This document shows positions 4,581 to 31,380 of a stretch of 64,000 nucleotides of DNA, piece after piece. The DNA lies in assembly GCA_964649615.1 (NCBI GenBank), contig CAZYPW010000006.1, positions 12,635 to 76,634 on the forward strand, written 5' to 3'. Position 1 is the first letter of the stretch; each line of letters starts with the position of its first letter. The stretch is from an uncultured Gammaproteobacteria bacterium. Lineage in GTDB: Bacteria > Patescibacteriota > Microgenomatia > Daviesbacterales > UBA10151. The position numbers were made by a program, and so were the translations under genes. The notes beneath the pieces were generated by a model. It did no database searches. It had not been told where the DNA came from and saw only the letters and a program-made list of their open reading frames with translations.

Positions 4581-5504
4581 ATGGCTGCCCAACTATCCTC
4601 CTTAATTACTGATTTTTTAGAATACTTAGAATTAGAACGCAATGCTTCTCAACTGACTATTAAAAACTATAGCCATTATTTAAAGAGATTTTTACTCTTT
4701 GCAGGAGATATTACACCTTCAGAAATTGATTTAAGTTTGGTCAGAAAATATAGGCTGTATCTGGCCCGTTTTACTGATCCTCAAACACACAAAGGCTTAA
4801 AAAGAATTACCCAAAATTATTTTATGATTGCTCTAAGGGCATTTTTAAGGTATTTAGCCAGAGTTGATATTGATACCATATCTCCAGAGAAAGTAGAGCT
4901 TGGCGGGTCAGATCCCAGGCCGCTAAAAGTGTTAGATGAGGCTCATTTAAAATCTTTGCTAGAGGCTTCAGATACCACTAAAAAAGATGGAATCAGGGAT
5001 AGATGCATACTGGAGATGCTATTTTCCACAGGTTTGAGGGTTTCAGAGCTAGCTTCTTTAAATAGGGATACTATTAATTTAAATAGAAGAGAGTTTGGGA
5101 TAGTTGGTAAAGGTGGCAAAGAAAGAGTGGTTTTTATCTCTGGCTCCGCTGCAGGTTGGTTAGAAAAATATTTAAATGTCAGGAAAGACAGCTTTAAACC
5201 TTTATTTATCAGATTTCAAGGAAAGGTAGATCCTTCTAATAATGGTGAAGCTATGAGGCTAACACCAAGGTCTATAGAAAGAATTGTAGAAAAATATGTG
5301 AAAAAGTTAGGGCTTCCTATTAAAGCTACTCCCCATACCTTAAGGCACTCTTTTGCTACAGATTTATTAATCAATGGAGCAGATATCCGCTCTGTCCAGG
5401 AAATGCTGGGCCACTCCTCTATCCAAACCACCCAAATTTATACCCATGTCACCAATCAACACTTAAAAGACGTCCACAAAGCATTTCATTCAGGAAATAA
5501 ATGA
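4581..5504 (+). CDS. xerC: Tyrosine recombinase XerC/XerD family
   Basis: Phage-integrase catalytic motifs: HTLRHSFAT, LLINGADIRSVQEMLGHSSIQTTQIYTHV. Confidence 0.85.
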   Translation: MAAQLSSLITDFLEYLELERNASQLTIKNYSHYLKRFLLFAGDITPSEIDLSLVRKYRLYLARFTDPQTHKGLKRITQNYFMIALRAFLRYLARVDIDTISPEKVELGGSDPRPLKVLDEAHLKSLLEASDTTKKDGIRDRCILEMLFSTGLRVSELASLNRDTINLNRREFGIVGKGGKERVVFISGSAAGWLEKYLNVRKDSFKPLFIRFQGKVDPSNNGEAMRLTPRSIERIVEKYVKKLGLPIKATPHTLRHSFATDLLINGADIRSVQEMLGHSSIQTTQIYTHVTNQHLKDVHKAFHSGNK

Positions 5505-5964: not shown

Positions 5965-6519
5965 ATGGACAAAAAAGCCAGAAGCATTCTTTTAAAAACC
6001 TTAGTTTTTATATTTAGTATAAGTTTAGCATGGTTTTTAGTTAAAAGCGGTTATTTGCACAGCTGGGTGGAGACAGTTCTTCCCCACCAGTTTATAGGAG
6101 AGTTTATAGCTGGCGCCCTTTATACTTCATTTCTTACCTCACCAATTGCAGTTGCTATGTTTTTAGTGATTGCTCAAGAGAGTAACCCGATCATAATAGC
6201 TCTAGTAGGAGGTTTAGGGGCAGCTTGTGGAGATATTTTAATTATAAAATTGTTTAGGGATAATTATAAAAATGATGTTGATAATGTTTCTAAACAATTG
6301 CACTTAAAAAGAATAAGTATATTTTTAAGGCTGTTTCATTTTGAATTTATCATTCCTGTGATCGGGGCAATAATTATTGCCTCCCCTTTCCCAGATGAGA
6401 TTGGACTATTAATGCTGGGAGTCTCCAGGCTTAAATATGGAGAGATTGCCAAGATAAGTTTTGTACTAAACTCCGCAGGAATTTTGTTGATTGCAGCACC
6501 GATTAATTTACTTACATGA
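5965..6519 (+). CDS. Integral membrane protein, hypothetical
   Basis: Multiple TM helices. No recognisable catalytic motif. Confidence 0.4.
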   Translation: MDKKARSILLKTLVFIFSISLAWFLVKSGYLHSWVETVLPHQFIGEFIAGALYTSFLTSPIAVAMFLVIAQESNPIIIALVGGLGAACGDILIIKLFRDNYKNDVDNVSKQLHLKRISIFLRLFHFEFIIPVIGAIIIASPFPDEIGLLMLGVSRLKYGEIAKISFVLNSAGILLIAAPINLLT

Positions 6520-8888
6520 CAGGATTAACAAGCGCTGAAGCAAAACAAGCTTTGGAAAAATTTGGGCCCAATCTTCTCCCTCAAAAAGGCGGTATCTCTA
6601 TCCTAAATATTTTTATCAACCAAATCAAAAACCCTTTTACTATTGTTTTAACTACAGCTATTGTACTTTCCTTCATTGTGGGAGACAAAATTGATGGCAT
6701 CCTGATTGGAGCCATACTGGTTTTAAATACCTTTTTGGGGTTTTGGCAGGAATACAAAGCTTCAAAAGAGCTTGAGGCTTTGAGAAGCCTTGAGGTTTTA
6801 ACCTCCAGAATAATAAGGGATGGCCGTGAAGTGGAAATATCAGCTTCAGAGATAGTACCTCAAGATGTGGTTATTTTAGAAGCTGGAGATAAAGTTCCAG
6901 CAGATGGAAAATTATTAGAAAGTTATTCTTTGCAGGTTAATGAATCTATTTTAACCGGGGAATCCTTGCCTGTTATTAAGAGCCGAACACATCCCTCCTT
7001 CGGAGGTAAAAATGATGAGGACCAGCTTTTTTTTGGAACCACTGTGATTTCAGGAAGAGGAAAGTTTCTTTGTTTACAAACAGGCCTAAATACCCGTTTT
7101 GGCAAAATTGCCCAAACTTTGGCGGAGGTTAAAAGCGAGCAAACACCCCTGGAGATTTCTTTATCTAAGTTAATAAAAGGTGTCAGTTTAGTGGTAATAA
7201 TTGTGACCATCCTAGTGTTTTTGGTGAGATTTTTCCAAGGGTTTGAATTAGCTGAGGTGTTGCTGTCAAGTATTGCCTTAATGGTAGCAGCTGTGCCAGA
7301 AGGGTTGCCTGCAGTGGTGACTATAGTTTTAGCTTTGGGGGTGAGAAAAATGTATCAAAGAAAGGCTTTGGTTAGGAAGATGATTGCGGTGGAGTCTTTA
7401 GGTGCTGCCACAGTTATTTTATCTGATAAAACAGGCACTTTAACTAAAAATGAGATGAGGGTGCAAGTTACAAAGGTAAACAAAGGTTCAGAGGGTGATT
7501 TACTTAAATGTGCAGTGCTTTGTAATAGTGCTAATTTGGTGCTCAAAGAGGACCCGCTTCGCCCGCGACTTGCGTCGACGCAGGTGCGAAGCGAGGCGAG
7601 TGGTTTTGATATTTTAGGAGATACCACTGAGGGGGCTTTACTTCTATGGGCAAAAGACAAAGGTGAGGAGATAGAAGCTTTAAGGTCTGAGGGAAAGCTG
7701 CTTGAGGAAATCCCCTTTTCACTGCAGACTAGAAAGATGACTGTGATCTGGGAACATTCTGGGAAAAAAGCAGCATATACCAAAGGGGCTCCTGAAGTCA
7801 TTTTAAAAGAAGTTAAGCTGCCTGAAAAAGAATTTCTGGTTTGGGAAAAAGAATACCAGAAAATGGCCTCAAAGGGCTTAAGGGTTTTAGGTTTCTCTAA
7901 AGATGAAAAATTCTTAGGGTTAATTGGTATTGCTGATCAGATAAGGGAGGAGGCTAAGGAGGCCATCAGGCTAGCCAAAGGGGCTGGAATTAAAGTCTGT
8001 ATGGTTACAGGAGATAATGAGCTGACAGCTAAAGCAGTCTCTGAACAGTTAGGCTTGCTTGAGGAAGGAGATGAGGTTTTAACAGGGGCTCAACTTAATT
8101 TACTATCTGATGAACAGCTGAAGGAAAGAATAGATAAAATTAAAGTTTATGCCAGGATTGAGCCTTTGGATAAATTAAGAATAGTAAAGATATACCAAAG
8201 CATGGGAGAAGTGGTGGCAGTAACTGGAGATGGGGTTAATGATGCTCTGGCTTTAAAACAGGCCCAGATTGGGGTTTCTATGGGCAAAATTGGCTCTGAT
8301 GTTTCCAAAGAAGCTTCAGACATCATTTTATTAGATGATAACTTTGCTACTCTTGTTTCTGCTGTGGAACAAGGCAGGGTTATTTATGCAAATATCTTAA
8401 AAGTAATTAAATTTTTATTAACTGGGAATTTATCAGAAATTTTACTGATAAGTGTGGCCTCATTTTTAGCTCTTCCCACTCCCCTTCTGCCTACCCAGAT
8501 CCTTTGGATAAACTTTGTTTCAGATGGGCTGCCTGCGCTGTCTTTAGGATTTGATAACCCTTCCTCACATATCATGAGAAATTCTCCTAGAAAGGGCAAT
8601 AATATTTTGGGGGTATCTATGGTAAGATATGTGCTTTTAGGTGGGATATCAATTGGGGCAATTTGTCTATTAACTTTCTATTATATTTATCAAAACTTTG
8701 GGGTAGAGTTAGCCAGGACTATAACTTTTACTCTACTGGTACTGCTGCAGATGATTTTACCTTTTATTATCAGAAGGCATCACTCTATTACTTCCAACAA
8801 AGTGCTTTTATTGTCTGTAATTTTAGTATTAATTATGCAAGCATTAATTCTAACTGTGCCTCAGTTAAGATCTATTTTTAAGATCTAA
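6516..8888 (+). CDS. P-type cation-transporting ATPase (Ca2+/P2-type)
   Basis: DKTGTLT phosphorylation motif, TGDGVNDALAL hinge motif, N-terminal Cation_ATPase_N-like region. Carries a GC-rich in-frame insert at 7553-7603. Confidence 0.9.
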   Translation: MTGLTSAEAKQALEKFGPNLLPQKGGISILNIFINQIKNPFTIVLTTAIVLSFIVGDKIDGILIGAILVLNTFLGFWQEYKASKELEALRSLEVLTSRIIRDGREVEISASEIVPQDVVILEAGDKVPADGKLLESYSLQVNESILTGESLPVIKSRTHPSFGGKNDEDQLFFGTTVISGRGKFLCLQTGLNTRFGKIAQTLAEVKSEQTPLEISLSKLIKGVSLVVIIVTILVFLVRFFQGFELAEVLLSSIALMVAAVPEGLPAVVTIVLALGVRKMYQRKALVRKMIAVESLGAATVILSDKTGTLTKNEMRVQVTKVNKGSEGDLLKCAVLCNSANLVLKEDPLRPRLASTQVRSEASGFDILGDTTEGALLLWAKDKGEEIEALRSEGKLLEEIPFSLQTRKMTVIWEHSGKKAAYTKGAPEVILKEVKLPEKEFLVWEKEYQKMASKGLRVLGFSKDEKFLGLIGIADQIREEAKEAIRLAKGAGIKVCMVTGDNELTAKAVSEQLGLLEEGDEVLTGAQLNLLSDEQLKERIDKIKVYARIEPLDKLRIVKIYQSMGEVVAVTGDGVNDALALKQAQIGVSMGKIGSDVSKEASDIILLDDNFATLVSAVEQGRVIYANILKVIKFLLTGNLSEILLISVASFLALPTPLLPTQILWINFVSDGLPALSLGFDNPSSHIMRNSPRKGNNILGVSMVRYVLLGGISIGAICLLTFYYIYQNFGVELARTITFTLLVLLQMILPFIIRRHHSITSNKVLLLSVILVLIMQALILTVPQLRSIFKI
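7553..7603. repeat. Family-5 GC-rich nested palindrome CGCTTCGC..TGCGTCGACGCA..GCGAAGCG
   Basis: In-frame in the P-type ATPase (DPLRPRLASTQVRSEAS). About 70% GC in a 35% GC gene. Confidence 0.75.
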
Positions 8889-9270
8889 ATATGCCCTATA
8901 GTTTGACATAAAATATCCTCCAGGAGTATAATTCCTAATATGTCAGAAAGAATTAATCCTTCAGAAGATCCTAGTCTATTAGATCTATGAAAGATAGTGT
9001 TATGGAGATTTGGGGCTTTATTCATCAGCCAGATTTTAGCGATTGGTTAGTTAATCATAAAGGCCAGGTGGCAAGAAAATTATTACTTCTAGGAGGATTA
9101 GGAATAGTCACCCTATTTGGTTTTAAGACACTAAAAGATACTTATAATCACTAGCAGAAAACCCCGCTTTCTTAAAACGGGGATGAATGCTAAAGTGATT
9201 ACAGTCTTCCGCGGGATAGGTGGTATATAATCCAACTAGTCCCACCTCCGAGGTAGGAGTGATCGGACAC

Positions 9271-9768
9271 CTAGGGTTTTCTCAGTGATTTTAAGATATC
9301 TACATTTTCTTTGTCTGGACCATTATCTGCAAAACCTGGGACTTCTAAAATAAATGGTAGCTCTTTTAAGGAAGGATTATTTAATAAATTCTCAAAGCCC
9401 TCTCTGCCTATCATTCCCTCCCCTATATTAGCATGCCTGTCTCTTTTAGAACCTAACTCAAATTTAGAATCATTAGCATGCACTACTGCTAAATTTTCTA
9501 GCCCTATCTCTTCCTAAAATTCTTCCAAAGTAGATTTTAAGCCAATTGGAGTTTTTATATCATAGCTTGAGGTGAAAGCATGGCAGGTATCTAAGCAAAC
9601 CTTAACCGTATTCCCACTTCCGATGTGGGAACGCACTCCTTTGCCTGCGATCGCATATGATTTTGTCAACACTTCTGCAGCTGCTAAATTCATGGCATAA
9701 ACTAACCATTCTATAGATTTTTGTAGGTGAGCAGGATTAGTAGAAACATGAGCTCCTACCTTTGTCAT
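9271..9768 (-). pseudogene. nfo: Endonuclease IV (nfo) remnant with internal deletion and frameshift
   Basis: The N-terminal ORF (9514-9768) has MTKVGAHVS and VCLDTCHAF but lacks about 130 core residues. The C-terminal motifs HANDSKFELGSKRDRHANIGEG are in another frame (9271-9483). The palindromic element at 9611-9631 lies inside. Confidence 0.55.
9611..9631. repeat. Family-1 palindrome TTCCCACTTCCGATGTGGGAA
   Basis: Inside the nfo remnant. Read as SHIGSGN on the minus strand. Confidence 0.9.
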
Positions 9769-9925
9769 AGAGCTAGATTATATCGAACACCGTATTTTTC
9801 TGGGTTAGTCTTTAAATTATCCATAGAAGTTTCCCAGCCTGCAAATTGGGGATTATTATTGATTACTTGGGCAAATCTTTTTTGTAGTTTTCAGATCAAA
9901 TTGCATTGACAACTAAAATTACCTA

Positions 9926-10978
9926 ATGTACTATGGGCAATACTGCTCTTCTGATATGGCCAAAATTGACTTAACTATTCCTTCCCTAGGATCTAGATTT
10001 GTTGATATTAGAGAAACAATTTCAGGTGATTCTTTTAATTGGAGTTGGACTAGGCCGCTGTCTCAGGTGGTTTTTTTGGCAATTCACCACACAGCTGGCC
10101 CAGACAGCCAAACCCCAGAACAAATTGCTAACTTTCATATTAGCTCTAATGGTTGGGGTGGAATTGGTTATCATTTTCTGGTTGACAAAAATGGGATTGT
10201 TTATTATGTGGGTGATATTTCAACAGCCAGGGCTAATGTAGCTAATTTAAATGACCAGGTTATTGGGATTTGTTTGATTGGCAGTTTTATGTCTGGAAAA
10301 GAGCCTACTGATGCCCAGATTAATTCTGCTAAAATCCTGTGTGATTTTTTTATTAATAATTATCCTGATTTAGCTAATTTAAATTCCTATGATCAGGTTA
10401 AAGGTCATAAAGAGCTTCCAGGCCAATCAACTGCTTGCCCAGGGGAAACATGGCCTTTATGGAAAACTAAGATTACCTCAGCCCCGATTGAATCGGGGTC
10501 AGGCAGCCCTACTCCACTTCCTACCTCAACTCCAGTAAGCGATAGAGGTGCCAAAATTACAGAAAGCTATAGAAAAGTATTAGGCAGGGATCCAGATATG
10601 GGTGGGCTGCAAACTTATACCAACGGGCTGTTGAGCATTGATCAGATAGTTTGGTCTATGGTGGCCTCAGAGGAGCATCAAAATTTAATAATGCTGGCTA
10701 AAGAAGCAGAAGATTTGAAAAACCAGGTGGATAACATGCAGACCTCTTTAACTTCTGTAAATCAACAATTGCTGATTTTGCAAGAAAGCCTAAGAGACAA
10801 AGATGAAGAAATTAACCGCTTGAGAGCTCAAAGCAGCCACGCTCCCAGCAATGGCAGCCCCCAACCTCCTAAGAGTGTGGATAATACCTTGACTATCGCT
10901 GATCTTTTTATTAATTTATACAAGTTCATATTTCCGTCCAGAAAGGAAGCCCCGATTAAATCGGGGTTGATTAAATAG
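9926..10978 (+). CDS. N-acetylmuramoyl-L-alanine amidase (Amidase_2/PGRP) with DUF4214-like region and coiled-coil tail
   Basis: VFLAIHHTAG and GHKELPGQSTACPG Zn-amidase motifs. KVLGRDPDMGGLQTYTNGL matches DUF4214. C-terminal heptad-rich region. Confidence 0.75.
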   Translation: MYYGQYCSSDMAKIDLTIPSLGSRFVDIRETISGDSFNWSWTRPLSQVVFLAIHHTAGPDSQTPEQIANFHISSNGWGGIGYHFLVDKNGIVYYVGDISTARANVANLNDQVIGICLIGSFMSGKEPTDAQINSAKILCDFFINNYPDLANLNSYDQVKGHKELPGQSTACPGETWPLWKTKITSAPIESGSGSPTPLPTSTPVSDRGAKITESYRKVLGRDPDMGGLQTYTNGLLSIDQIVWSMVASEEHQNLIMLAKEAEDLKNQVDNMQTSLTSVNQQLLILQESLRDKDEEINRLRAQSSHAPSNGSPQPPKSVDNTLTIADLFINLYKFIFPSRKEAPIKSGLIK

Positions 10979-11275: not shown

Positions 11276-11515
11276 TTATACAGGTTTGCCGGCCAGGCCA
11301 TAGATTAATAAATCCTGCACAAACCCTATTGCCTGAAATGGCCAAGTTATAATTACTGAGTAAAATCCTGGGGAAAGAAAAGAAAGAACAGGCCATCTGT
11401 AGTAAGCTGCAAAAATGATGGCAAAGACAAAACCAATCATAAAATATCCTATGGCAATTGTGGACAAGAGTTTTTCTTTAGACATGAGATTTTTCTGCTT
11501 GCTCAGCTTTTTCAT
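11276..11515 (-). CDS. Small membrane protein, hypothetical
   Basis: Two predicted TM helices. Overlaps the gyrA stop by about 38 nt, so it may be spurious. Confidence 0.25.
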
Positions 11516-13946
11516 TGGATGAAACAGTTGTAGCTGCAGCTACTTTCTCTCCTGGCCTGGTTCTCATTAAAATAACTCCTTGGGTTTGTCTTTGCAGTGT
11601 AGGCACCTGTTTTAGCTCCATTTTAATAAGCTGTCCTTTAGTAGAGGTTAAAACTAAAGTATCCAAACTTTTATCTAAAACCTGGGCTGTCACAATATTG
11701 CCAGTTTTAGCAGTAATTTGGGCTGCTTTTACTCCCTGCCCGCCTCTTCCTTGTCTGCTCCAAGCAGAGGTGGCAGTCTTTTTGCCCAAACCATTTTCCA
11801 TAATTACCAAAAGTGTTCCTTCCTCCTTGCCCACTATGTTTAAAGACACAACCTGGTCATCGCTACCCAGCCTAATCCCTCTGACTCCTGAGGTATCTCT
11901 GTGGGTGGGTTTTACTCCCTTTTCAGAAAATCTAATGCTTTTGCCCTTTTTGGAAACAATGATTACATCACTCTCCCCGTCAGTAGGGCTTACCCAACCC
12001 AGTTCATCTCCACTATCTAATTTAATAGCTACTAATCCATTTTTTCTAATATTGGCATATTCTTCTATAGCTGTTTTTTTAACCGTGCCACGGGAGGTGC
12101 ACATAAAGAAATACTTGGCTTTTTCCCCTTTGCCTCTGGTGGTTAAAACAGCAGTCACCTTTTCTCCCTGTTCTACATTAATTAGGTTAACAATAGCTTG
12201 GCCTTTGGCTGCCCTTTGAGTTTCTGGGATGTCCCAAACCTTAATTTGAAAAACCCTGCCTTTGTCTGTAAAAAATAAAATACTATCATGGGTTTGGGTA
12301 TAGAAAATATGGGAAACAGCATCTGTTTCTTTGGTAGAGATGCCCATTACTCCTTTGCCGCCTCTGGCTTGAGTCCTAAAAGAGTGTGGTGATTGCCTTT
12401 TAACATAGCCTCCTTCTGTAATGGTAACTATGGTGATTTCATTTGGCACCAAATCTTCTTCTGAAAACTCTCCCACTTTTTGCTGGTAAACTCTGGTTTT
12501 TCTAGGATCAGAGTATTTTTCTTTAATTTTGGAAATCTCATCTTTAATTACTTTTAAGATCTTTTCTGGATGGGCTAATAAATCCTCCAAGTAAGCAATT
12601 AATTCTTTAACCATTTTTAACTCTTCTTCAATCTTTAATCTTTCCAAAGCAGCTAAGCGCCTTAATTGCATATCCAAAATAGCTACCGCTTGAATTTCTG
12701 ATAATTTAAACTTTGCCATTAAATTTTTCCTGGCTTCTTCTGCATCTTTAGATTTTTTGATAGTTTCAATCACTGCATCAATATTTGCTACAGCAATCAT
12801 TAGGCCTTCTAAAATATGCTCACGGGCTTTAGCTTCTTTTAATTCAAACTCAGTCCTTCTTTTGATAATTGTTTGCCTGTGTTTAATAAATTCTTCCAAA
12901 ATATGCTTTAAGGTTAAAAGGTGCGGCACTCCATCCACTAAAGCCACCAAATTTACATTAAAAACAGACTGCATGGCTGTGGATTTATATAAATTATTTA
13001 AAAGGGCTTGGGGTTTGGCGTCTCTTTTTAGATCAAAAACAATCCTGACCATCTGTTTTCTATCTGATTCATCCCTTAAATCTGCTATTCCTTCTAATTT
13101 TTTGTCTTTTACTAAATCTGCAATTCTAGCAATCAGGGTGGCTTTATTAACTTGGTAAGGCAGTTCTGAGACAATAATTTGCATTTTGCCTTGTGGGGTT
13201 TCATCAATCTCTACTTTGGCTCTCATCACAATCCTGCCTTTGCCTGTCCCGTAAGCTGCTGTTATTTCTGTCTGGTCATAAATTGAAGCTCCAGTGGGAA
13301 AGTCAGGGCCTTTGACAAATTTCATCAAATCTTCAACAGTAGCCTCTTTATGCTCTATCATGTAAATCAATGCCTCACAAACTTCTCCCAAATTATGGGG
13401 AGGGATTTGAGTAGCCATCCCAACAGCAATGCCTGAGGCTCCATTAAGCAGCAGGTTGGGAATAACTGAAGGAAGCAAAGTGGGCTCCTTAACAGTTCCA
13501 GAATAATTATCTACAAAATCAACTGTATTTTTAGAAATATCCCTTAATAGCTCATCAGCTATGGCAGATAACCTGGCCTCTGTATACCTCATGGCTGCAG
13601 GAGAATCCCCATCTATTGAGCCATAATTTCCTTGGCCATCTATCAACATATATCTAAGAGAGAAATTTTGGGCCATTCTAACCATAGCCTCATAAACTGG
13701 GGCATCACCATGGGGATGCAAATTTTTCAAAACTTCACCCACCACAGCAGCACTTTTTTGGTATCTTGAGGTATGGTGCAAATTTTGCTCATGCATAGCA
13801 AAAACAATTCTTCTCTGGACTGGTTTTAGCCCATCTCTCACATCAGGCAGGGCACGGGAAACAATTACAGACATGGCATAATCCAAATAGGATTTCTGCA
13901 TCTCATCAATTATTGGGGCTGGCTGGATTTTACCAATGTTACTCAT
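11478..13946 (-). CDS. gyrA: DNA gyrase subunit A
   Basis: [10 protein letters not shown] and [10 protein letters not shown] active-site region. C-terminal beta-pinwheel repeats. Confidence 0.95.
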
Positions 13947-16403: not shown

Positions 16404-17563
16404 ATAACTATTCTCTTTGTAGATTCTGCTAAATTAACTAGCAGTTCATAAGGAATGGTTTGGCAGATTTTAGCACAGTTTAAAATAGAATTTTTGCCCC
16501 TTGGATTATCGGAATAAACTATTACTTCTTGTCCAATATATGGTTTAGATACTTTGGTAATATCTATGGTGGTAATATTCATGCTGACTCTGCCTATGAT
16601 TGGACATTCAATACCATCAACAAAAACTATCCCTTTGTTAGATAACCTCAAATCAACTCCCTCATAGTAACCTAGTGGCAATATACCTACTGTCAGATTT
16701 CTTTTGGCAGTATAAAGACTCTCGTACCCTACCTTATCCCCTTTTTTTAGTTCTTTAATTTGAATAATCTTAGTTTTTAATTTTAAAACAGGTTTTAAAT
16801 CTACATTCCCACTTCGGATGTGGGAATTCGATATGCCATAGAGAGCAAGACCTACTCGGGCTATATTTACGTTGCAACCTCGAAGGTGGAATCGTAATAA
16901 TCCATCTGAGTTTTGGATATGAATATACTTTGGATTAAAACCAGCCTTCCTAACAATTTGTTGTACGTGCTTCAAATTGTTAATTTGCTTAAGATTCAAT
17001 CCATTCTTGGGATCATCTGCACAAGCAAAATGTGATATCAAACCTTCCACTTTTAAGTATTTTAGCCCTTTTAGTTCTTCTAAAAATAGTGGTAAATCTT
17101 TCATTTGAATGCCTTCTCTGCTCATACCAGTATCTACAAAAATATGAACACTACATTCTGGTTGATATTTACTTAAAACTTTAGCTGTTTTCAAATCATA
17201 TAAAGCAAAAGAAAAAGGCAGTTTTTTAACTTTAAAATTTTCAGGATTTGTATATCCCATTATTAAAATTTTAGTTTTAATCCTTGCTTTTAGTAATTCA
17301 TATGCTTCATATAAAGAATCAACACAAAAAAATGGTGCATTAACTTGGTCTAAAATTTTTGCTATCTCAACTATTCCATGCCCATATCCATTACTTTTTA
17401 TGACAGGGGCAACTTTAATTTTTTTAGTGCGCGAAGCGCGCGAGCTTTGCTCATTTAAAGAAGATAAATATTTGTAGTTATGAATTAAATTTGCTTTCGA
17501 CACCTCAATTAGATTTAAGGTTTGGTAATCTTTTTTAAATATTTTTAGAATTTTGCTTAACAT
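16400..17563 (-). CDS. alr: Alanine racemase
   Basis: PLP-lysine motif VIKSNGYGHG. Carries in-frame element insertions at 16806-16826, 16871-16890 and 17427-17447. Confidence 0.85.
   Translation of the reverse strand: MLSKILKIFKKDYQTLNLIEVSKANLIHNYKYLSSLNEQSSRASRTKKIKVAPVIKSNGYGHGIVEIAKILDQVNAPFFCVDSLYEAYELLKARIKTKILIMGYTNPENFKVKKLPFSFALYDLKTAKVLSKYQPECSVHIFVDTGMSREGIQMKDLPLFLEELKGLKYLKVEGLISHFACADDPKNGLNLKQINNLKHVQQIVRKAGFNPKYIHIQNSDGLLRFHLRGCNVNIARVGLALYGISNSHIRSGNVDLKPVLKLKTKIIQIKELKKGDKVGYESLYTAKRNLTVGILPLGYYEGVDLRLSNKGIVFVDGIECPIIGRVSMNITTIDITKVSKPYIGQEVIVYSDNPRGKNSILNCAKICQTIPYELLVNLAESTKRIVI
16806..16826. repeat. Family-1 palindrome
   Basis: In alr. Read as SHIRSGN. Confidence 0.9.
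16871..16890. repeat. Family-2 palindrome CAACCTCGAAGGTGG
   Basis: In alr. Read as FHLRGCN. Confidence 0.6.
17427..17447. repeat. Family-5-like GC hairpin GTGCGCGAAGCGCGCGAG
   Basis: In-frame in alr (SSRASRTKK). Confidence 0.6.
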
Positions 17564-17997: not shown

Positions 17998-20352
17998 ATG
18001 ACTTTTGAGGATTTAAGAAAAAAACATCCTGAGTTTATATATCATGGGTTTGAAAAAAAATTTGAAGATCAAACATTAAAAATCTATTTTGATTTTGAGA
18101 TATCTCCAAACATTAAATTCAGACCGGAAATTATTCTCCCAAACGTGTTCCCACATCGGATGTGGGAAGGCAAATTGGATAATTTGGTTTTTAATTTAGG
18201 AATGGTTGAGCTGATAAGTTACTGGAAAGCAACTTGTTCTCCAAAAATTACTATCAAAGCAGGTTTTTTAGATCAGGAACAAATTAAATTTTGGAAAAAA
18301 CTTTTAATAAAAGGCCTGGGAGAATTTTTTTATACAAACAGAATAGATTTTACCCAGGATGGGCTAGTTAATTTTGAAGTACGTTCCCACATGTCAAGTG
18401 GGAAGCCATTTGAGGGGATTTTGAAAGATAGAGATTTAATACTTGTTGGTGGAGGTAAGGATTCTGTTGTTACTTTGGATTCTATTTCCAAATCAGGTAA
18501 AGAATTTAACTGTCTGCTTTTAAATCCAACAGATGCAGCTATTAAAATTGCAGAAATCGGTGGGTGTAAAAATCCAATAATAGTGAAAAGAACAATAGAT
18601 CCTAAACTTTTGGAATTAAATGAGCAGGGTTATTTAAACGGCCATACTCCTTTTTCTGCATATCTTGCGTTTTTATCAATGCTATCTTCTGTAATTTATG
18701 ATTATAAAAATGTTGTTGTTTCTAATGAGTCCTCATCTAATGAAGGAAATGTGATTTGGATGGGTAAAGAAATAAATCATCAGTATTCTAAATCAGAGGA
18801 ATTTGAAAAAGACTTTAAAGAATATAGTCAAAAATATCTAGCTCCTGTTAATTACTATAGTTATTTAAGAGAATTAAATGAATTGGAAATTGCCAGAATT
18901 TTTTCCAACTTAGAAAAATACCACAAGGTTTTTAGAAGTTGTAACAAGGGTTCAAAACAAGGGAGTTGGTGTGGCAAGTGCTCAAAATGCCTATTCACTA
19001 ATTTAATTCTTTATCCGTTTTTAGGAAAAAAAATAGAAAGAATTTTTGGCAAAGATTTACTTGATGATGAAACTTTATCTCCAGTTATGGAAGAGCTTTT
19101 GCATTTGCCGGGTAAATTTAAGCCGTTTGAATGTGTTGGCACAAAAGAGGAAATTGAATATGCAATGTTGCTGGGCATTTTAAGAAGCAAGAGAAAATTA
19201 TTAGAAAGATATAAAGATCAGATATCAATCCTAATTTTGGGAATGGGCAGAGAAGGAATAGCAACAAGTAATTTTTTGCAAAAAAATAACATAAATTTCT
19301 CAACCTCTGATCAAAAAGAGGGGAAAAATTATCTTGATAAGTTAAAAGATTATGACGTGATTATTAAATCTCCCGGCATCCCCTATTTGATAGAAATTAA
19401 AAAAGCCAAAGAAAATGGAAAAATCATTTCATCTAGCACGCAAATTTTTTTTGATCTTTGCCTTGGGAAAATAATCGGCGTCACCGGTACCAAGGGCAAA
19501 AGCACCACCACATCCATGATTTATGAAGTCTTAAAATCAGGAGGCTTAGATGTTTACCTGGTGGGGAATATTGGTCAGCCAGCGCTGGATTTATTAGATA
19601 ATCTTAAGAAAGATTCTATAGTAGTTTATGAATTATCTTCATTCCAGCTAGCTGATCTTAAGAAAAGTCCTCAGATTGCAGTGATAACCAATATTTATCC
19701 GGATCATTTGGACTGGCATGGCAGTTTTGAAGATTATAAAAAAGCCAAAGAAAATATCAGTAGGTTTCAGACAAAAAATGATATTCTTATCTCCAATAAA
19801 AGAGGTGCTGAAGCTGCAAAAATTATTGGAAAATTATTTAAAATAAGTGAAGAAAAAATAAACAAAGCAATTAAGAATTTTAAGCCACTCCCACATCGGT
19901 TAGAATTTGTTGCAGAAAAAAATGGAATTAAATTTTATAATGATTCCCTGGCAACTAATCCCCATGCCACCATTTTTGGGTTAAAGACTTTAGGAGAAAA
20001 AGTAGAGACTTTAATAGCCGGAGGGCTTGACCGCGGGGTTGATTATTCCATTTTAGGACCGGTAATTGCCAATTCAAAAATAAAAAATCTAATTTTATTT
20101 CCTGATACAGGTAAAAAAATAGGAGAGGTCGTCAGTTATCAGCCCGCTTCGCTGCGAGGCGAGTCATCAGCTATCAGACAATTTCATGTTAATAATATGG
20201 AAGAGGCTGTTAAAATTGCTTATGAAAATACTTCCCCTGGAAAAATTTGCCTGATGTCCCCTGCCTCAGCCAGTTTTAATATGTTCAAAGACTATGAAGA
20301 TAGAGGAAATCAGTTTAGGAGTTGGGTTGCCAGATTAGGAAGAAGACACTAG
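17998..20352 (+). CDS. murD: Fusion protein: N-terminal PP-loop-like ATP-pyrophosphatase-type domain plus C-terminal MurD-type Mur ligase
   Basis: The C-terminal 400 aa have GVTGTKGKSTTTSMI (P-loop), NIGQPALDLL, DHLDWHGSFEDY. The N-terminal 400 aa have LVGGGKDSVVTLD (SGGxDS-like) and WCGKCSKC. Two in-frame palindromic elements at 18148-18168 and 18384-18404. Confidence 0.7.
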   Translation: MTFEDLRKKHPEFIYHGFEKKFEDQTLKIYFDFEISPNIKFRPEIILPNVFPHRMWEGKLDNLVFNLGMVELISYWKATCSPKITIKAGFLDQEQIKFWKKLLIKGLGEFFYTNRIDFTQDGLVNFEVRSHMSSGKPFEGILKDRDLILVGGGKDSVVTLDSISKSGKEFNCLLLNPTDAAIKIAEIGGCKNPIIVKRTIDPKLLELNEQGYLNGHTPFSAYLAFLSMLSSVIYDYKNVVVSNESSSNEGNVIWMGKEINHQYSKSEEFEKDFKEYSQKYLAPVNYYSYLRELNELEIARIFSNLEKYHKVFRSCNKGSKQGSWCGKCSKCLFTNLILYPFLGKKIERIFGKDLLDDETLSPVMEELLHLPGKFKPFECVGTKEEIEYAMLLGILRSKRKLLERYKDQISILILGMGREGIATSNFLQKNNINFSTSDQKEGKNYLDKLKDYDVIIKSPGIPYLIEIKKAKENGKIISSSTQIFFDLCLGKIIGVTGTKGKSTTTSMIYEVLKSGGLDVYLVGNIGQPALDLLDNLKKDSIVVYELSSFQLADLKKSPQIAVITNIYPDHLDWHGSFEDYKKAKENISRFQTKNDILISNKRGAEAAKIIGKLFKISEEKINKAIKNFKPLPHRLEFVAEKNGIKFYNDSLATNPHATIFGLKTLGEKVETLIAGGLDRGVDYSILGPVIANSKIKNLILFPDTGKKIGEVVSYQPASLRGESSAIRQFHVNNMEEAVKIAYENTSPGKICLMSPASASFNMFKDYEDRGNQFRSWVARLGRRH
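18148..18168. repeat. Family-1 palindrome TTCCCACATCGGATGTGGGAA
   Basis: In the PP-loop::MurD fusion. Read as FPHRMWE. Confidence 0.9.
18384..18404. repeat. Family-1 palindrome, variant B TTCCCACATGTCAAGTGGGAA
   Basis: Same gene. Read as SHMSSGK. Confidence 0.9.
20143..20166. repeat. Family-5-like CCCGCTTCGCTGCGAGGCGAG
   Basis: In-frame in the MurD part (PASLRGES). Shares CCGCTTCGC and GAGGCGAG with the 7553 copy. Confidence 0.6.
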
Positions 20353-24430: not shown

Positions 24431-25105
24431 TTATTTTTGAGGCATGACCAGCATTAAATATTCTAAAATTGCCCTAATATTAACATTCTGATTTTGCCAC
24501 TGTTCAGCCTGCATAAGCTCTTTTAAAAGGTTTACGTTCCCACTTGACATGTGGGAAGCTAGATTTTTATGGAAATATGTAACCAGGGCAGGTAATAATT
24601 CTGCTCTATCTTTTAATTTTTCTATATATTCAAACCTTTGCTCAATACTGAAATCTAATAATTTTTCTATATCTTCTAAGTAGTTGGTAGTTGGCTTGCC
24701 TCGCTGAGTTGGCGAAGCGGGTAGTTGGTAGTTGGTAGTAGAAAGATGCTCAATATGGCAGCGTGACAGGACTGTTGGTAAAAATTTAGCATCAGAATCT
24801 GCGCCTAAAATAAATAAACCATTCTCAGGTAATTCCTCCAGAGTTTTAAGTAAAGCATTTTGGCCCTCAGGAGTTAAATCTGACCCATTTTCTAAAACCA
24901 CTACCCTGCCTTTGGCTGAGTATGGTTTTAAAGAAAAATGTTCTTTGATTTTTCTGGCTTGTTCTATGCCTAATTTGGAATCAACTGGATAGTATAAAAC
25001 ATCTGGATGGTTCGTGTTCCCACTTCCGATGTGGGAAGCTATAGTTTGTTGAATTTCCTGTTTCCTATCTTCTAAATTAGGTGAAATTAAAAGCCTTGCA
25101 ATCAT
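24431..25105 (-). CDS. holB: DNA polymerase III delta-prime-like subunit
   Basis: VVVLENGSDLTPEGQNALLKTLEE and the LSRC sensor motif. Three in-frame repeat insertions (24537-24557, 24681-24740, 25017-25037). Confidence 0.7.
   Translation of the reverse strand: MIARLLISPNLEDRKQEIQQTIASHIGSGNTNHPDVLYYPVDSKLGIEQARKIKEHFSLKPYSAKGRVVVLENGSDLTPEGQNALLKTLEELPENGLFILGADSDAKFLPTVLSRCHIEHLSTTNYQLPASPTQRGKPTTNYLEDIEKLLDFSIEQRFEYIEKLKDRAELLPALVTYFHKNLASHMSSGNVNLLKELMQAEQWQNQNVNIRAILEYLMLVMPQK
24537..24557. repeat. Family-1 palindrome variant B
   Basis: In holB. Read as SHMSSGN. Confidence 0.9.
24681..24740. repeat. GTAGTTG tandem heptamers flanking GC hairpin CTTGCCTCGCTGAGTTGGCGAAGCGG
   Basis: In-frame in holB (TTNYQLPASPTQRGKPTTNY). 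Confidence 0.7.
25017..25037. repeat. Family-1 palindrome
   Basis: In holB. Read as SHIGSGN. Confidence 0.9.
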
Positions 25106-25142: not shown

Positions 25143-26849
25143 ATGTTTCAAGCTCCTGCCCAAAATACAATTGAGGACATCCTTTTTAAAGAAGGCCTGC
25201 TGTCTAAAGAACAACTGGCAGCTATCAAATTAGAAAGTATTAACTTGGGTCAACCTATTGATAAGTTAATCCTGCAGCACAATTTAGCTCCCATAGACAG
25301 AATTATCCAGGCTAAAGCCCAGTTGTTGAATGTCCCTTTTATGAAGCTGGAAGGAAAAGCTATCTCTGCTGAGGTTTTAAACCTGATTCCTGAGGCTGCA
25401 GCCAGGCGTTATACCATCATCCCTTTTGAGAAACAGGGTGATGAGCTTTGGGTAGCCATGGCAGATCCCTTAGATATTCAAATAATCCAGTTTATAGAAA
25501 AAAGATCTGGCAAAAGAGTTAAACCCTATTTAGCTTTGCCTGAAGATATTTTAAAAGCCATCTCTGACCAATATGCCCAAAATTTAACCTCTGAAGTTAC
25601 TTCTGCTTTAAAGGAAGTTCAATCAGTAAAACCTGAGGAAGAAATCTCAACTGGCCCTCAAATAATCAGAGAAGCTCCAGTTACTAACATTGTTAACCAA
25701 CTTTTGGAATATGCTATTAAAACCCGCTCATCTGATATTCACATCGAGCCCCAGGAAGATAGGACCAGGGTTAGATATAGGATTGATGGGATTTTGCAGG
25801 AAAAAATCCTTCTTCCCAGGGGAGTTCATGATGCTTTAGTTTCTAGAATAAAAATCTTGTCTGTTTTAAAGATAGATGAAAGAAGATTGCCCCAGGATGG
25901 AAGGTTTACTTTTACCTTGGGTGAAAATGAGGTAGATCTGAGGATTTCCACAGTTCCTACTGTTTTTGGAGAAAAAGTAGTGATGAGGCTATTGCCTAAA
26001 TCCACCAATGCCCCTACTCTTTTAGAATTAGGCTTAAGAGGCAGTTCTTTAAAAGCTTTGGAGACTCAACTCTTGCGCCCTCATGGCATCATTTTAGTTT
26101 GTGGTCCTACAGGTTCTGGAAAAACTACTACTTTGTATTCAGTTTTAACTAAAATTTCCACCACCAAAGTTAATGTAGTGACTGTGGAGGACCCTGTTGA
26201 GTACCAGATTCCAGGTGTTAATCAGGTTCAAGTGAATCCTACAGTTGGCCTGACTTTTGCCTCAGCCCTGCGTTCATTTTTAAGGCAGGATCCAAATATT
26301 ATTATGGTAGGAGAAATCAGAGATACAGAAACAGCTGATTTGGCAATACAAGCTGCCTTAACTGGCCACCAGGTTTTTTCTACTGTTCATACTAATTCTG
26401 CCTCAGGTGCTCCTCCTAGGCTTTTGGATATGGGGGTGGAGCCATTTTTATTAACCTCCTCTTTAAATGCAGTGGTTGGGCAAAGAGTAGTCAGAAAAAT
26501 TTGCCCCCACTGTAAAATGGAATTTCCAGCCCCACCTGAGGTGGTGGAAAATATTAAATCAGTTTTGGGGAATTTTTTGCCAAAATCATTAGGCCTAAAT
26601 TTGAAGCTTTTTAAAGGGCAAGGTTGTGCCCAATGTGTTAAAACAGGTTATTTGGGCAGGGTGGGGATTTTTGAAGTGTTGGTGGTGACAGATTCTTTGG
26701 CCAAATTGATTTTAGAACATGCTTCCAGCACTGCCATTGAGCAGCTGTCAGTTTCCCAAGGCATGGTGACTATGAAACAGGATGGCTATTTGAAGGCATT
26801 GGAAGGTGTGACTACTATGGAGGAGGTGTTGCGCGTAGCGCAAGATTAA
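25143..26849 (+). CDS. pilB: Type IV pilus assembly ATPase PilB/GspE
   Basis: N-terminal T2SSE_N-like domain, Walker A VCGPTGSGKTTT, and a CxxC...CxxC tetracysteine. Confidence 0.9.
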   Translation: MFQAPAQNTIEDILFKEGLLSKEQLAAIKLESINLGQPIDKLILQHNLAPIDRIIQAKAQLLNVPFMKLEGKAISAEVLNLIPEAAARRYTIIPFEKQGDELWVAMADPLDIQIIQFIEKRSGKRVKPYLALPEDILKAISDQYAQNLTSEVTSALKEVQSVKPEEEISTGPQIIREAPVTNIVNQLLEYAIKTRSSDIHIEPQEDRTRVRYRIDGILQEKILLPRGVHDALVSRIKILSVLKIDERRLPQDGRFTFTLGENEVDLRISTVPTVFGEKVVMRLLPKSTNAPTLLELGLRGSSLKALETQLLRPHGIILVCGPTGSGKTTTLYSVLTKISTTKVNVVTVEDPVEYQIPGVNQVQVNPTVGLTFASALRSFLRQDPNIIMVGEIRDTETADLAIQAALTGHQVFSTVHTNSASGAPPRLLDMGVEPFLLTSSLNAVVGQRVVRKICPHCKMEFPAPPEVVENIKSVLGNFLPKSLGLNLKLFKGQGCAQCVKTGYLGRVGIFEVLVVTDSLAKLILEHASSTAIEQLSVSQGMVTMKQDGYLKALEGVTTMEEVLRVAQD

Positions 26850-26947
26850 ATATTAAAAATCAAAATGCAAAATGACAATGTAGAATTTAAAATTTTAAAT
26901 TTTAATCTGTCATTTTTATTTTTTAGTTCTAATCTTTACATTTAATA

Positions 26948-28000: not shown

Positions 28001-28022
28001 ATGGCAGAAAGGATATATAAAA

Positions 28023-29225: not shown

Positions 29226-29252
29226 CTTCGTGAGCTTGCGAGTACTGCGTTT

Positions 29253-29277
29253 GCTCTTTTGATCGTTGTCAAAGAGC
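29253..29277 (+). terminator. Hairpin after pilC
   Basis: GCTCTTTTGATCGTTGTCAAAGAGC stem-loop 28 nt after the pilC stop. Confidence 0.35.
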
Positions 29278-29396
29278 AACTTCGTACTTTTAAATTAACT
29301 ACCTCTTTCTAAGAGGTACTTGACTTACTATCTGCCTTTATGAATAGAATAGATTAGATCGGAAAATAGATAAATCCTGAAGGGGGGTGAATAATT

Positions 29397-29936
29397 TTGA
29401 TAAAATCTGCTCACAGAGGGTTCACCTTGGTGGAACTTTTGGTTGTTATTGCAATTATTGCCATTTTGGCAGCTGTGGTGGTTTTAATTATTAACCCGCT
29501 TGAATTAACAAGAAGAGGCAGGGATGCAGCAAGGCTGACAGATCTTGCTAATCTTCAAAATGCTATTAATGTAGCAGTTCAAGAATCCACAGGTTCATCT
29601 GCTGTAGCTGTTTTGTGTGTAGGATCTATTGACTATCCATGTAATGGGTCATCTCACACAGGCACAAGAGCTGCTGATGGAACAGGATGGGCTAAGGTTA
29701 ATTTGTCTTCATCACAAAGCGTTTCAGTGCCTACCTTACCACAAGATTCAACTAACTCAACTACTCTTCATTACACATACTGTGCTGATGATGATGCTTG
29801 GGAAATTGATACTGTGTTGGAGTCTGACCAACAAAAAGGTAAGATGTTGACTGATGGCGGGAATGAGGATGATAAATTTGAAGTAGGTTCCAACTTGCAG
29901 CTGATAGCTGCTTCAGGTGGAAGCTGCACATACTAA
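29397..29936 (+). CDS. pilA: Type IV pilin (probable major pilin)
   Basis: Prepilin leader and GFTLVELLVVIAIIAILAA N-methylation/cleavage motif. C-terminal Cys pair. Confidence 0.8.
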   Translation: MIKSAHRGFTLVELLVVIAIIAILAAVVVLIINPLELTRRGRDAARLTDLANLQNAINVAVQESTGSSAVAVLCVGSIDYPCNGSSHTGTRAADGTGWAKVNLSSSQSVSVPTLPQDSTNSTTLHYTYCADDDAWEIDTVLESDQQKGKMLTDGGNEDDKFEVGSNLQLIAASGGSCTY

Positions 29937-29949
29937 AGGCCAGGTTTGA

Positions 29950-31377: not shown

Positions 31378-31380
31378 AAA

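Follow-up and report, generated by a model that had tools for sequence, protein, structure and literature searches.

Short GC-rich palindromes, probably REP/RPE-like insertion elements, lying in frame in genes of a Candidatus Daviesbacteria contig

Introduction

Precise insertion of hairpin DNA without target-site duplication is a hallmark of HUH single-strand transposition, insertion of the IS200/IS605 type predicts a common tetra- or pentanucleotide target, and RAYT-cognate REPs (repetitive extragenic palindromes) are usually lineage-specific. Short GC-rich palindromic units also make up the mobile GC clusters of yeast mitochondria, which inhabit a very AT-rich genome and have in-frame copies in a protein gene. 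DNA uptake sequences, which occur about once per kb, have been reported with a bias to genome-maintenance genes. Palindromes inside genes are known as intragenic REPs, which have been described together with REPtrons (Di Nocera et al., 2013; PMC3733652), and as the in-frame RPEs that are read through as added peptide segments in Rickettsia housekeeping genes (PMC10969869, PMC3733652). As for structure, d(GCGNAGC) mini-hairpin DNA is an extraordinarily stable motif (PMC13037366).

How REP-like hairpins move is a long-standing question, and our searches of the literature on CPR, Patescibacteria or Microgenomates turned up no relevant report of such elements. Here, we analyse a 64-kb stretch of a Candidatus Daviesbacteria contig with 37% GC (hereafter the window), in which a first-pass annotation had picked out a GC-rich nested palindrome within a P-type ATPase gene and proposed that this and several related segments might be mobile hairpins, or DNA uptake or recombination sites. 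We refer to these palindromes as family 5.

The element in the ATPase gene

The nested palindrome noted at 7553-7603 has the sequence that was claimed and lies in frame in its host ORF (6516-8888), which Pfam assigns to the P-type ATPases and which is a calcium-pump gene, the element proper being 48 nt long:

7553-7600, + strand: family-5 element, 48-nt form, with ends set by empty-site orthologues
7553-7562: left arm, CCCGCTTCGC
7571-7582: inner perfect palindrome, TGCGTCGACGCA
7591-7600: right arm, GCGAGGCGAG

The element is about 70% GC, its outer 8-nt arms (CGCTTCGC, 7555-7562; GCGAAGCG, 7586-7593) are 100% complementary, and the windowed GC profile (also drawn in 2-kb blocks) bears out the local peak, with 0.68 across 7538-7603 against 0.371 for the window as a whole. 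A scan for perfect GC-rich hairpins gave 10 clusters versus 3.5 expected, a modest excess against which the 48-mer is unusual rather than typical. It folds as single-stranded DNA with -15.3 kcal/mol (z = -2.1) and as RNA, in its mRNA context, with z = -2.6. The earlier suggestion of strong local mRNA structure therefore stands for the 48-mer and falls for the 21- and 27-nt copies described below, whose weak folds (~-5 kcal/mol) are no better than those of shuffles. At the protein level, the insert codes for PLRPRLASTQVRSEA, inside DPLRPRLASTQVRSEASG, and closely follows the DKTGT motif, within the nucleotide-binding domain. AlphaFold predicts coil at residues 345-366 (pLDDT <50), which places the insert in a modelled protein loop. 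An exact search for this ATPase in a contig index had no hit, and its best match among GTDB species representatives is 67% identical.

Alignment with orthologues, proposed earlier as a check of insertion status, revealed an insert with exact boundaries that is missing from most of the 120 ATPase sequences compared. Most read KED-GG-FD with nothing inserted in the loop, four carry family 5, and about 12 others have different insertions there, including unrelated palindromes in L008 (CACCTCGAAGGTG..CACCTTCGAGGTG) and L011 (CCCGGATCCGGG). In the DNA, every copy has GA(G/A)GA on one side and the third base of the Asp codon on the other, with a 48-nt form in the window and L001, a 30-nt form in L084 and a reversed 21-nt form in L085; since removal of each version gives a known empty-site sequence, there is no target-site duplication. 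The carriers represent four separate lineages, one of them with the reverse orientation, that are only 72-75% identical to one another, and the nearest relatives of each (79-84% identical) have an empty site. Between the window and L001 the element is identical at 46 of 48 positions, in genes that are 70% identical overall and 46% at third positions, and is the best-conserved 48-nt stretch of the ATPase gene (P ~1e-5).

Copies and related motifs in the window

Related segments had been listed in alr, the MurD part of an ORF, holB and the region upstream of recG. Those in MurD and holB are true two-arm members of the family, whereas those in alr and upstream of recG share only the GCGAAGC motif. 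A further, degenerate relative lies upstream of nusB.

17426-17452, - strand: GC-rich 27-nt insertion in alr, coding for EQSSRASRT, with a hairpin GCGCG-AAG-CGCGC at 17429-17441
20128-20142, + strand: heptamer array GTCGTCA GTTATCA G, left of the MurD copy, already in orthologues
20143-20163, + strand: family-5 element in MurD, canonical 21-nt form CCCGCTTCGC-T-GCGAGGCGAG, two-arm match
20164-20178, + strand: heptamer array TCATCAG CTATCAG A, right of the MurD copy, already in orthologues
24680-24694, + strand: heptamer array GTAGTTG x2.1, flanking the holB copy
24695-24721, - strand: family-5 element in holB, 27-nt form CCCGCTTCGC-CAACTCA-GCGAGGCAAG, two-arm match
24722-24739, + strand: heptamer array (G)GTAGTT x2.9, on the opposite flank of the holB copy
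43536-43569, + strand: degenerate intergenic relative GATCCTTCGG-CTCGCTTCGC-TCGCTC-AGGATGAC, upstream of nusB
45910-45946, + strand: two GAA-triloop mini-hairpins (TCGCGAAGCGG; GTGGCGAAGCCAC), intergenic, upstream of recG, motif only

The MurD copy keeps the frame of ORF 17998-20352, in the MurD part of which it codes for PASLRGE. In the L219 orthologue there is an exact empty site, GCTATCAG^TCGTCAGCTATCAGA, where the window has exactly the 21-mer, so that this copy too came without target-site duplication. The holB copy is in frame in a linker of DNA polymerase III delta' and codes for PASPTQRGK, which lies in the insert-plus-array stretch TTNYQLPASPTQRGKPTTNY; its loop form (CRACTCA) recurs at L136, a metagenome locus, and at L209, a viral one. 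Both copies are embedded in heptamer arrays, which are found next to 5 of 83 metagenome copies versus 1.6% of control positions (a modest enrichment). The direct repeats beside the MurD and holB copies were considered as target-site duplications and discarded, the array in L219 being pre-existing and nothing duplicated, and capture of the holB loop CAACTCA from the flanking heptamer was rejected because the same loop form occurs in the unrelated L136 and L209 copies. As for the relatives, the 27-mer in alr is an insertion relative to eight of nine orthologues that has the GCGAAGC mini-hairpin motif in common with family 5 and lacks its two arms, and the outer ..CAGGATGAC flank of the sequence upstream of nusB matches the sequences that flank L135 and L156 among the metagenome copies.

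Motif counts in the window amount to 7 for GCGAAGCG (0.08 expected), 16 for GCGNAGC (5.4 expected) and 3 for GAGGCGAG by itself (0.31 expected, a weak enrichment), while the two-arm pattern CCGCTTCGC-N0-30-GCGAGGC occurs three times (0.00 expected). The arms are almost never found singly, and the density of two-arm copies is 3 per 64 kb. An Rfam search of the whole window returned zero matches, and the element is therefore not a known RNA family.

The family beyond the window

A motif search beyond the locus had been suggested at the outset. In addition to the three two-arm copies in the window, a metagenome scan (examined loci spanning up to ~22 kb) found family 5 in at least 120 contigs, mostly AT-rich. 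The dominant loop lengths are 1, 7 and 10 nt, and total length is divisible by three in 78 of 86 copies. Forty of 87 metagenome copies (and 3/3 two-arm copies in the window) are within long ORFs, where every one of the six frames and either orientation is used, yielding peptides such as PAS.., PLR.., RFA.., SPR.., LASL.. and RLA..; there is zero orientation bias. Other affected Daviesbacteria genes are found in L019, L009 and L007, the last being GyrA with the compensatory variant GCTCCGC/GCGGAGC, and hosts that were struck repeatedly include LeuRS (L093 and L128, at the same site), LepA and GyrB. The arms are conserved over very diverse contigs of 31-71% GC, GC-rich viral ones included, in which the canonical 30-mer is present.

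Flanks of 85 copies give the consensus (C)CGG^...^C(A)GG. Left flanks vary (GAGGA, TATCAG, CAACTA, CCGG), the ATPase site is used in both orientations, and the copies show no evident tetra- or pentanucleotide target in common. Family-5 cores are also found at the apices of other hairpins, and one core, in the holB orthologue P0181, lies inside a TTCCCAC-type hairpin. The original idea of a dispersed hairpin family acting as mobile DNA is borne out by presence and absence among orthologues, precise ends, reuse of one site in two orientations and the hundreds of copies elsewhere, whose lengths are codon-phased.

A RAYT-like gene and the search for a mover

One gene in the window encodes a candidate for the type of enzyme that could move such hairpins:

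48885-49592, + strand: RAYT-like Y1/HUH transposase gene, with conserved HUH motif (NHFH) and YIHRN

Its scores are 9.9e-10 for Pfam Y1_Tnp and 1.2e-9 for NCBIfam REP_Tyr_transpos, the latter under the model's own cutoff, and judging by its sequence it represents a candidate type of mobilising enzyme. However, the hairpins that flank it and sit inside it (48873, 49353 and 49567) belong not to family 5 but to a different family, TTCCCAC-N7-GTGGGAA. That family is lineage-specific and, with 15 copies, far more abundant than family 5. RAYT-like homologues in eight other loci are likewise mostly flanked by their own lineage-specific hairpins, and RAYT-like genes with REPtron architecture exist both in this window and in related genomes. 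Family-5 arms lie beside none of the nine RAYT-like genes examined (window, L084, L008, L011, L020, L014, L055, L142 and L151), and the 140 ORFs nearest family-5 copies show no enrichment of any transposase family.

What family 5 might be

Family 5 is probably a non-autonomous, REP/RPE-like miniature palindromic insertion element that is moved as single-stranded DNA. Fixed, slightly asymmetric 10-nt arms (CCCGCTTCGC ... GCGAGGCGAG/GGG) enclose a variable core, and the whole element enters at one phosphodiester bond, without target-site duplication. The mover would be a RAYT/IS200-type single-strand transposase (HUH/Y1) that acts on the folded hairpin. The targets of the element would be stretches of DNA that probably turn single-stranded or structured for a time: heptamer arrays, the loops of other hairpins and a small number of gene sites that recur. 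In a host genome that is nearly all coding, the survivors would be multiple-of-three variants (21, 27, 30 and 48 nt) in tolerant surface loops or linkers, their in-frame state reflecting selection rather than targeting, and intact reading frames suggest that they are transcribed and translated as 7-16 added residues. Against this explanation stand the RAYT survey (0/9) and the lack of an enriched transposase near the copies, the absence of a GTAG/CGTC end tag and of an evident common tetra- or pentanucleotide target, the pan-lineage distribution of the arms and the weakness of the short forms as hairpins.

These same observations invite the thought that the element is mobile and the mover something else, such as carriage by phages, repair of structured DNA that copies and pastes from a template, or a nuclease or recombinase of another kind. 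Arms conserved far past one lineage, with the canonical 30-mer in GC-rich viral contigs, would fit such an agent, as would the use of one ATPase phosphodiester in both orientations, which is unusual for strand-specific Y1 insertion. However, precise hairpin insertion without target-site duplication is just what HUH enzymes do, these genomes commonly have RAYT-like genes arranged as REPtrons and no alternative enzyme was found, which leaves this reading a possible but doubtful one. Just as doubtful is a bolder version, in which family 5 is no RAYT client but a pan-lineage, codon-phased mobile hairpin with its own insertion machinery, homing-like precision and a place in a layered mini-insertion system. 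If this were true, a homing-like hairpin favouring hairpin apices and heptamer arrays would have struck one ATPase phosphodiester in at least four lineages, in both orientations, and family 5 would form, with the 7-nt tandem arrays and the REPtron family TTCCCAC, which is lineage-specific, nested layers of mini-insertions that keep remodelling loops of essential CPR proteins.

The remaining readings fare much worse. Selection for a hairpin or peptide function (mRNA stability, translation control or a protein linker) in an old, vertically inherited insertion could explain why conservation is far higher in the element than in the ATPase gene around it, why the 48-mer is stable as both RNA and DNA hairpin and why the stem change in the L007 copy is compensatory, but it is very unlikely given a patchy distribution with empty nearest relatives, the opposite orientation of one copy at the same site, the use of six reading frames and both strands, the weak folds of short forms and host genes that are mutually unrelated. 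Even harder to credit is a DNA uptake sequence whose arms are recognised by type IV pilus/competence machinery and accumulate through preferred uptake. The window does contain a type IV pilus cluster (25143-40887), the arms are conserved over many lineages and copies occur in genome-maintenance genes, but three two-arm copies in 64 kb are far below one per kb, the arms rarely stand alone, orientation is unbiased and the copies are discrete insertions with exact ends rather than motifs built by substitution; if any family here suited uptake, it would be the much commoner TTCCCAC one, which is, however, linked to a RAYT gene. The uptake proposal of the first-pass annotation is thus not supported, in view of the rarity of single arms, low density and origin by insertion, and neither is the recombination-site proposal, no recombinase or site-specific context having been found with family-5 copies. 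Least credible is de novo origin, in which template switching or snap-back synthesis at fragile loop-coding sites would create the palindromes and no mobile source would be involved. Although this could account for the unique, unrelated palindromes at the ATPase loop in L008 and L011, it cannot yield identical asymmetric 10-nt arms at more than 100 unrelated sites.

Significance

In-frame invasion of genes by palindromes, known from Rickettsia RPEs and rare intragenic REPs, extends to the Candidate Phyla Radiation, where it appears to be the rule and not the exception, as expected for genomes with almost no intergenic space. Owing to their codon-phased lengths, these elements steadily supply essential proteins (ATPases, gyrase, clamp loader, Mur ligases and tRNA synthetases) with loop insertions, and anyone who annotates CPR proteins, aligns them or builds trees from them faces a practical hazard. 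With exact empty and filled sites and co-resident RAYT-like genes, the movement of REP-like hairpins becomes testable with defined substrates.

Comparison with known systems

The more distant analogies are quickly delimited. MITEs have terminal inverted repeats and a target-site duplication, and of the latter the exact empty sites for the ATPase and MurD copies show no trace. The scattered, nested or arrayed short GC-rich palindromes of yeast mitochondria, some of them in frame, resemble family 5, but they belong to an organelle genome, come with reported short AT-rich target duplications and are unrelated in sequence. The core of the family-5 arm (GCGAAGC), together with window hairpins GCGCAGC and GCGTAGC, fits d(GCGNAGC), which is a structural motif and not a genetic element. 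IS200/IS605 elements are closer, in that hairpin DNA is precisely inserted without target-site duplication and a Y1 homologue is present in the window, whereas family 5 shows no evident conserved tetra- or pentanucleotide target, uses both orientations at one site, carries no transposase and has no cognate one that we could find.

The nearest parallels are REPs and RPEs. Family 5 differs from REPs in that (i) an unpaired GTAG or CGTC end tag is missing from the 85-copy flank profile, (ii) no family-5 REPtron exists among the nine RAYT-like genes, (iii) REPs are mainly extragenic, whereas about half or more of family 5 is intragenic, (iv) lengths are codon-phased (21/27/30/48 nt) and arms are shared by very diverse hosts and (v) the host is a CPR/Patescibacteria bacterium. 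It resembles them as a set of imperfect GC-rich palindromes of 20-50 nt with many dispersed copies, some of which are intragenic, notably in replication, repair and tRNA-synthetase genes, within genomes that have several such families each and RAYT-type Y1 transposases flanked by cognate hairpins. RPEs come from another phylum, and those of the RPE-1 type are ~100-150 bp long and encode a conserved peptide in one frame, whereas family 5 is 21-48 nt long and uses six. The likeness to RPEs is that of palindromes in unrelated housekeeping genes of a small AT-rich genome, which lie in frame (here in ATPase, MurD, holB, GyrA, LeuRS, LepA and GyrB) and for which empty orthologues exist.

Host region and anatomy of the palindrome family

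The window, whose GC content is 37%, carries a P-type ATPase 100% identical to a protein named by NCBI as Candidatus Daviesbacteria (CPR/Patescibacteria lineage). It is crowded with housekeeping genes (gyrA, gyrB, alr, ddl, Mur ligases, holB, recG, nusB, RNase III and trmD), to which are added ATP synthase genes and a type IV pilus cluster; Rfam detected no known RNA family, tRNA included, across the 64 kb.

Landmark genes in the window
4581-5504: XerC/D-like tyrosine recombinase gene, which adjoins the ATPase gene in related contigs too
25143-40887: type IV pilus gene cluster (PilB, PilT, PilC, several pilins, prepilin peptidase, PilM)
31771-32427: AbiEii-family toxin gene, inside the pilus cluster

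Two host neighbourhoods differ from those of relatives. The downstream neighbour of the ATPase gene in loci L001 and L002 is an AP endonuclease 2 (nfo-like) gene, which in the window (8885-9770, minus) is present only as fragments in differing frames (ORFs 9514-9768 and 9271-9483), one containing a TTCCCAC hairpin (RSHIGSGNT); this remnant probably reflects pseudogenization or a frameshift error. At 17998-20352, a single 784-residue ORF joins MurD to ~400 N-terminal residues that form a domain weakly matching DUF6395, the two parts being separate genes, adjacent or overlapping, in the close relatives L219 and L220.

The type copy of family 5, the GC-rich nested palindromes, reads CCCGCTTCGC CCGCGACT TGCGTCGACGCA GGT GCGAAGCGAGGCGAG and lies in frame in ORF 6516-8888, which has the full set of P-type ATPase domains. 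Its 8-nt arms, CGCTTCGC and GCGAAGCG, pair without a mismatch and enclose a perfect 12-nt palindrome, confirming the in-frame palindrome of the first-pass annotation. The 48-mer folds at -15.3 kcal/mol as ssDNA (z = -2.1) and is also structured in its mRNA context (z = -2.6), as had been proposed. Window-wide, GCGAAGCG occurs 7 times (0.08 expected) and the two-arm pattern CCGCTTCGC-N0-30-GCGAGGC 3 times (0 expected). Both arms, left CCCGCTTCGC and right GCGAGGC(G/A)AG, are common to the ATPase, MurD-like and holB copies, and form an imperfect inverted repeat with one C·A mismatch and one G·T pair in every case. The alr site and the site upstream of recG, which the first-pass annotation had placed in the same family, share only a hairpin motif.

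Family 5 and related sites in the window
7553-7600: 48-mer, P-type ATPase gene, both arms
20143-20163: 21-mer, MurD-like gene, both arms
24695-24721, minus: 27-mer, holB, both arms
17426-17452: alr, 27-nt insertion relative to 8/9 orthologues, hairpin GCGCG-AAG-CGCGC only
upstream of recG, intergenic: pair of GAA-loop mini-hairpins
43536-43569, intergenic: degenerate relative

All six sites have in common the d(GCGNAGC) mini-hairpin motif (PMC13037366), GCGNAGC being enriched in the window (16 against 5.4 expected).

Precise insertion into tolerant loops

Most of 120 aligned ATPase orthologues read LVLKED-GG-FDILGD where the window protein has an inserted DPLRPRLASTQVRSEAS. Family 5 occupies the same loop in three further orthologues (P0004, P0017 and P0009), and about a dozen others have unrelated insertions there, which makes this loop an insertion hot spot. 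At the DNA level, the position is invariant (after GA(G/A)GA and before the third base of an Asp codon) for an element that is 48 nt long in the window and L001, 30 nt in L084, and, in L085, an inverted canonical 21-mer. Deleting it gives sequences known from empty orthologues (KEDGFD, KEDSGSFD and KEDSGGFD); the target site was therefore not duplicated. Carriers are mutually just 72-75% identical, and the nearest relatives of every one of them (79-84% identical) have empty sites, so that several independent insertions, or precise losses, are needed. The 48-mers of the window and L001 agree at 46/48 positions, their genes at 70% of all positions and 46% of third positions (P about 1e-5); no other 48-nt stretch of the gene is as well conserved, and the flanks of the element are not co-conserved. 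Conservation of this kind argues against an inherited or transferred gene segment and for a recent insertion from a conserved source. The coil to which AlphaFold gives the lowest confidence in this protein (residues 345-366, pLDDT <50) contains the insert; it lies between helix 326-335 and helix 371-381, in the nucleotide-binding domain and shortly after the DKTGT phosphorylation motif.

At MurD, close orthologues read VVSYQ-SSAIR and the window VVSYQ-PASLRGE-SSAIR. The corresponding L219 DNA is GCTATCAG^TCGTCAGCTATCAGA, and what the window adds at the caret is exactly CCCGCTTCGCTGCGAGGCGAG. Since this empty site already shows the direct repeats that surround the MurD copy, these belong to an older heptamer array, which rules out a target-site duplication there. 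The holB copy is located in a hypervariable linker, which in other species is made of heptamer arrays (peptides such as TTNYELRTTNY); one holB orthologue has the family-5 core within the loop of a TTCCCAC-type hairpin.

Other repeats and hairpins

Period-7 tandem repeats form 23 arrays of at least two units in the window (2 in a shuffle), and periods 5, 6, 8 and 9 yielded no array there at ≥2.5 units. Many lie at ORF N-termini or gene boundaries, and they often flank small GC hairpins. The heptamer CGAACTA recurs at unrelated loci: 36612 (minus), 62472 (plus) and the holB linkers of other species.

Period-7 arrays and small GC hairpins
period-7 arrays: 1595-1627, 24680-24739, 30225-30302, 32960-32986, 33032-33065, 36612-36667
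period-7 arrays: 38454-38580, 41302-41337, 51287-51309, 51589-51613, 54071-54123, 62440-62493
10482-10498 and 10950-10966: CCCCGATT(G/A)AATCGGGG, twice in an amidase ORF
prepilin peptidase gene: CCTCC-GAA-GGAGG
33063-33077: TTGGC-GCA-GCCAA
41336-41352: TCAGC-GCA-GCTGA
intergenic: CTGCC-TTCG-GCAG
glycosyltransferase gene, in frame between ACGAACT arrays: GCCCC-TTCG-GGGC
30248-30260, 38484-38496, 62455-62474: coordinates of the prepilin peptidase, intergenic and glycosyltransferase hairpins

The loops of the amidase, prepilin peptidase, GCA- and TTCG-type hairpins are extra-stable, and these are probably further hairpin families. Many Daviesbacteria GyrA proteins (L004, L005, L007, L009, L011, L012, L015-L019, L050 and L055) carry 17-39 hypervariable residues inserted between MIEHP and ATVEDL; the insertion is made of heptamer arrays, the two halves of which are mutually inverted in some species, (AAGAGTC)n ... 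(GACTCTN)n; the window gyrA (11478-13946) is without it. The same inserted DNA, AGACTCTCGACTCTAGC.ACTAGCGACTC (peptide RLSTLATSDS), sits in the ATPase loop of L083, and a second element type therefore moves between genes too.

Family 5 beyond the window

Additional copies occur in other Daviesbacteria genes (L019, L009 and GyrA of L007, the last with a compensatory stem, GCTCCGC/GCGGAGC). A two-arm metagenome scan gave at least 120 contigs. Among the matches listed, some 85 copies are in AT-rich contigs and fall into canonical forms: a 21-mer (CCCGCTTCGC[A/C]GCGAGGCGAG), a 27-mer and a 30-mer (loop C-RRAGC-NNN-A). Again among the matches listed, loops measure 10 nt (n=43), 1 nt (n=20) or 7 nt (n=8), length is divisible by three in 78/86 copies, and 40/87 lie within long ORFs, where all six frames are used and orientation is unbiased; what is conserved is therefore not the peptide. 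Recurrent hosts in this same set are LeuRS (two orthologues ~50% identical, same site), LepA and GyrB. Many copies occupy the apex of a second hairpin, e.g. CCTGCCTGCCGG..CAGGCAGG or ATTCCCGC..GCGGGAAT, and L178 has two occurrences of a 55-nt extended unit. The canonical 30-mer CCCGCTTCGCCGG(A/C)GCTTCAGCGAGGCGAG is also found, embedded in CTCGCCTCGGCG / GGCGAAGCC-type repeats, in a few GC-rich viral and metagenome contigs (L207, L208, L210, L212 and L217, which are IMG/VR contigs of 67-69% GC, and L104), so that family 5, or its source, extends past AT-rich CPR genomes.

A candidate mover

L084 contains a Y1_Tnp gene, whose homologue was located in the window by tblastn at 48885-49592 (+). Its product is above the Pfam Y1_Tnp threshold, matches the NCBI REP-associated tyrosine transposase (RAYT) model below that model's cutoff, and conserves the HUH motif and the YIH.N tyrosine motif. 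TTCCCAC hairpins, which differ from family 5, accompany the gene at three places: immediately upstream (48873), within the CDS directly behind the catalytic YIHRN motif (49353), and where the gene ends (49567). Together, the gene and these hairpins are a REPtron in a CPR genome.

Copies of TTCCCAC-N7-GTGGGAA, the dominant hairpin family, in the window, 21 nt each (n=15, 0 expected)
9611, 16806, 18148, 18384, 21506, 24537, 25017, 45464
48873, 49353, 49567, 54441, 57981, 60733, 63419

Eleven of the 15 are in frame inside ORFs, mostly reading (A/R)SH(I/M)(G/S)SGN, with alr, MurD, a Mur ligase, holB (twice), recG and ATP synthase gamma among the hosts; ..ACG and CGTAG are frequent flanks. This family is nearly missing from the other fetched Daviesbacteria loci and essentially restricted to this genome, whereas family 5 crosses many lineages. 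In many species, holB orthologues have SHxxSGN-type inserts at the two sites that are used in the window. RAYT homologues in other loci mostly have their own distinct flanking hairpins, several with GTAG, which is the REPtron arrangement known from REPs (PMC3733652).

Origin of family 5 and comparison with known elements

Taken together, orthologue presence/absence, exact empty sites and repeated site use bear out the mobile hairpin family of the first-pass annotation: family 5 is a non-autonomous hairpin element that inserts precisely, without target duplication, at sites some of which are used repeatedly, and only codon-phased copies in tolerant loops survive. The DNA-uptake sequence that had been offered as an alternative is unlikely, considering the low density of copies, which are discrete insertions, and arms that are not found singly. 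Nor does a hairpin retained vertically for its function fit, since the distribution is patchy, one copy is reversed and six frames are used. De novo formation, which may account for the unique palindromes that L008 and L011 have in their ATPase loop, cannot account for family 5, because identical asymmetric arms at >100 sites are impossible to obtain that way.

A precisely inserted hairpin at an unduplicated target is what marks HUH/Y1 single-strand transposition, as is established for IS200/IS605 and has been proposed for REP/RAYT, and the mover of family 5 would thus be an enzyme of this kind. HUH/Y1-type enzymes do occur in the window, yet a specific tie to family 5 was looked for and not found: its arms flank 0/9 RAYT genes examined, and the 140 ORFs nearest family-5 copies include no enriched transposase family.

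In the literature on CPR bacteria, no description of such elements was found. The nearest known relatives are intragenic REPs and RPEs (PMC3733652, PMC10969869). Compared to REPs, family 5 has neither the GTAG/CGTC tag nor REPtron association, and its location is not confined to extragenic DNA; compared to RPEs, it differs in size and has no fixed reading frame. Family 5 therefore acts like REPs and RPEs but belongs to no described family.
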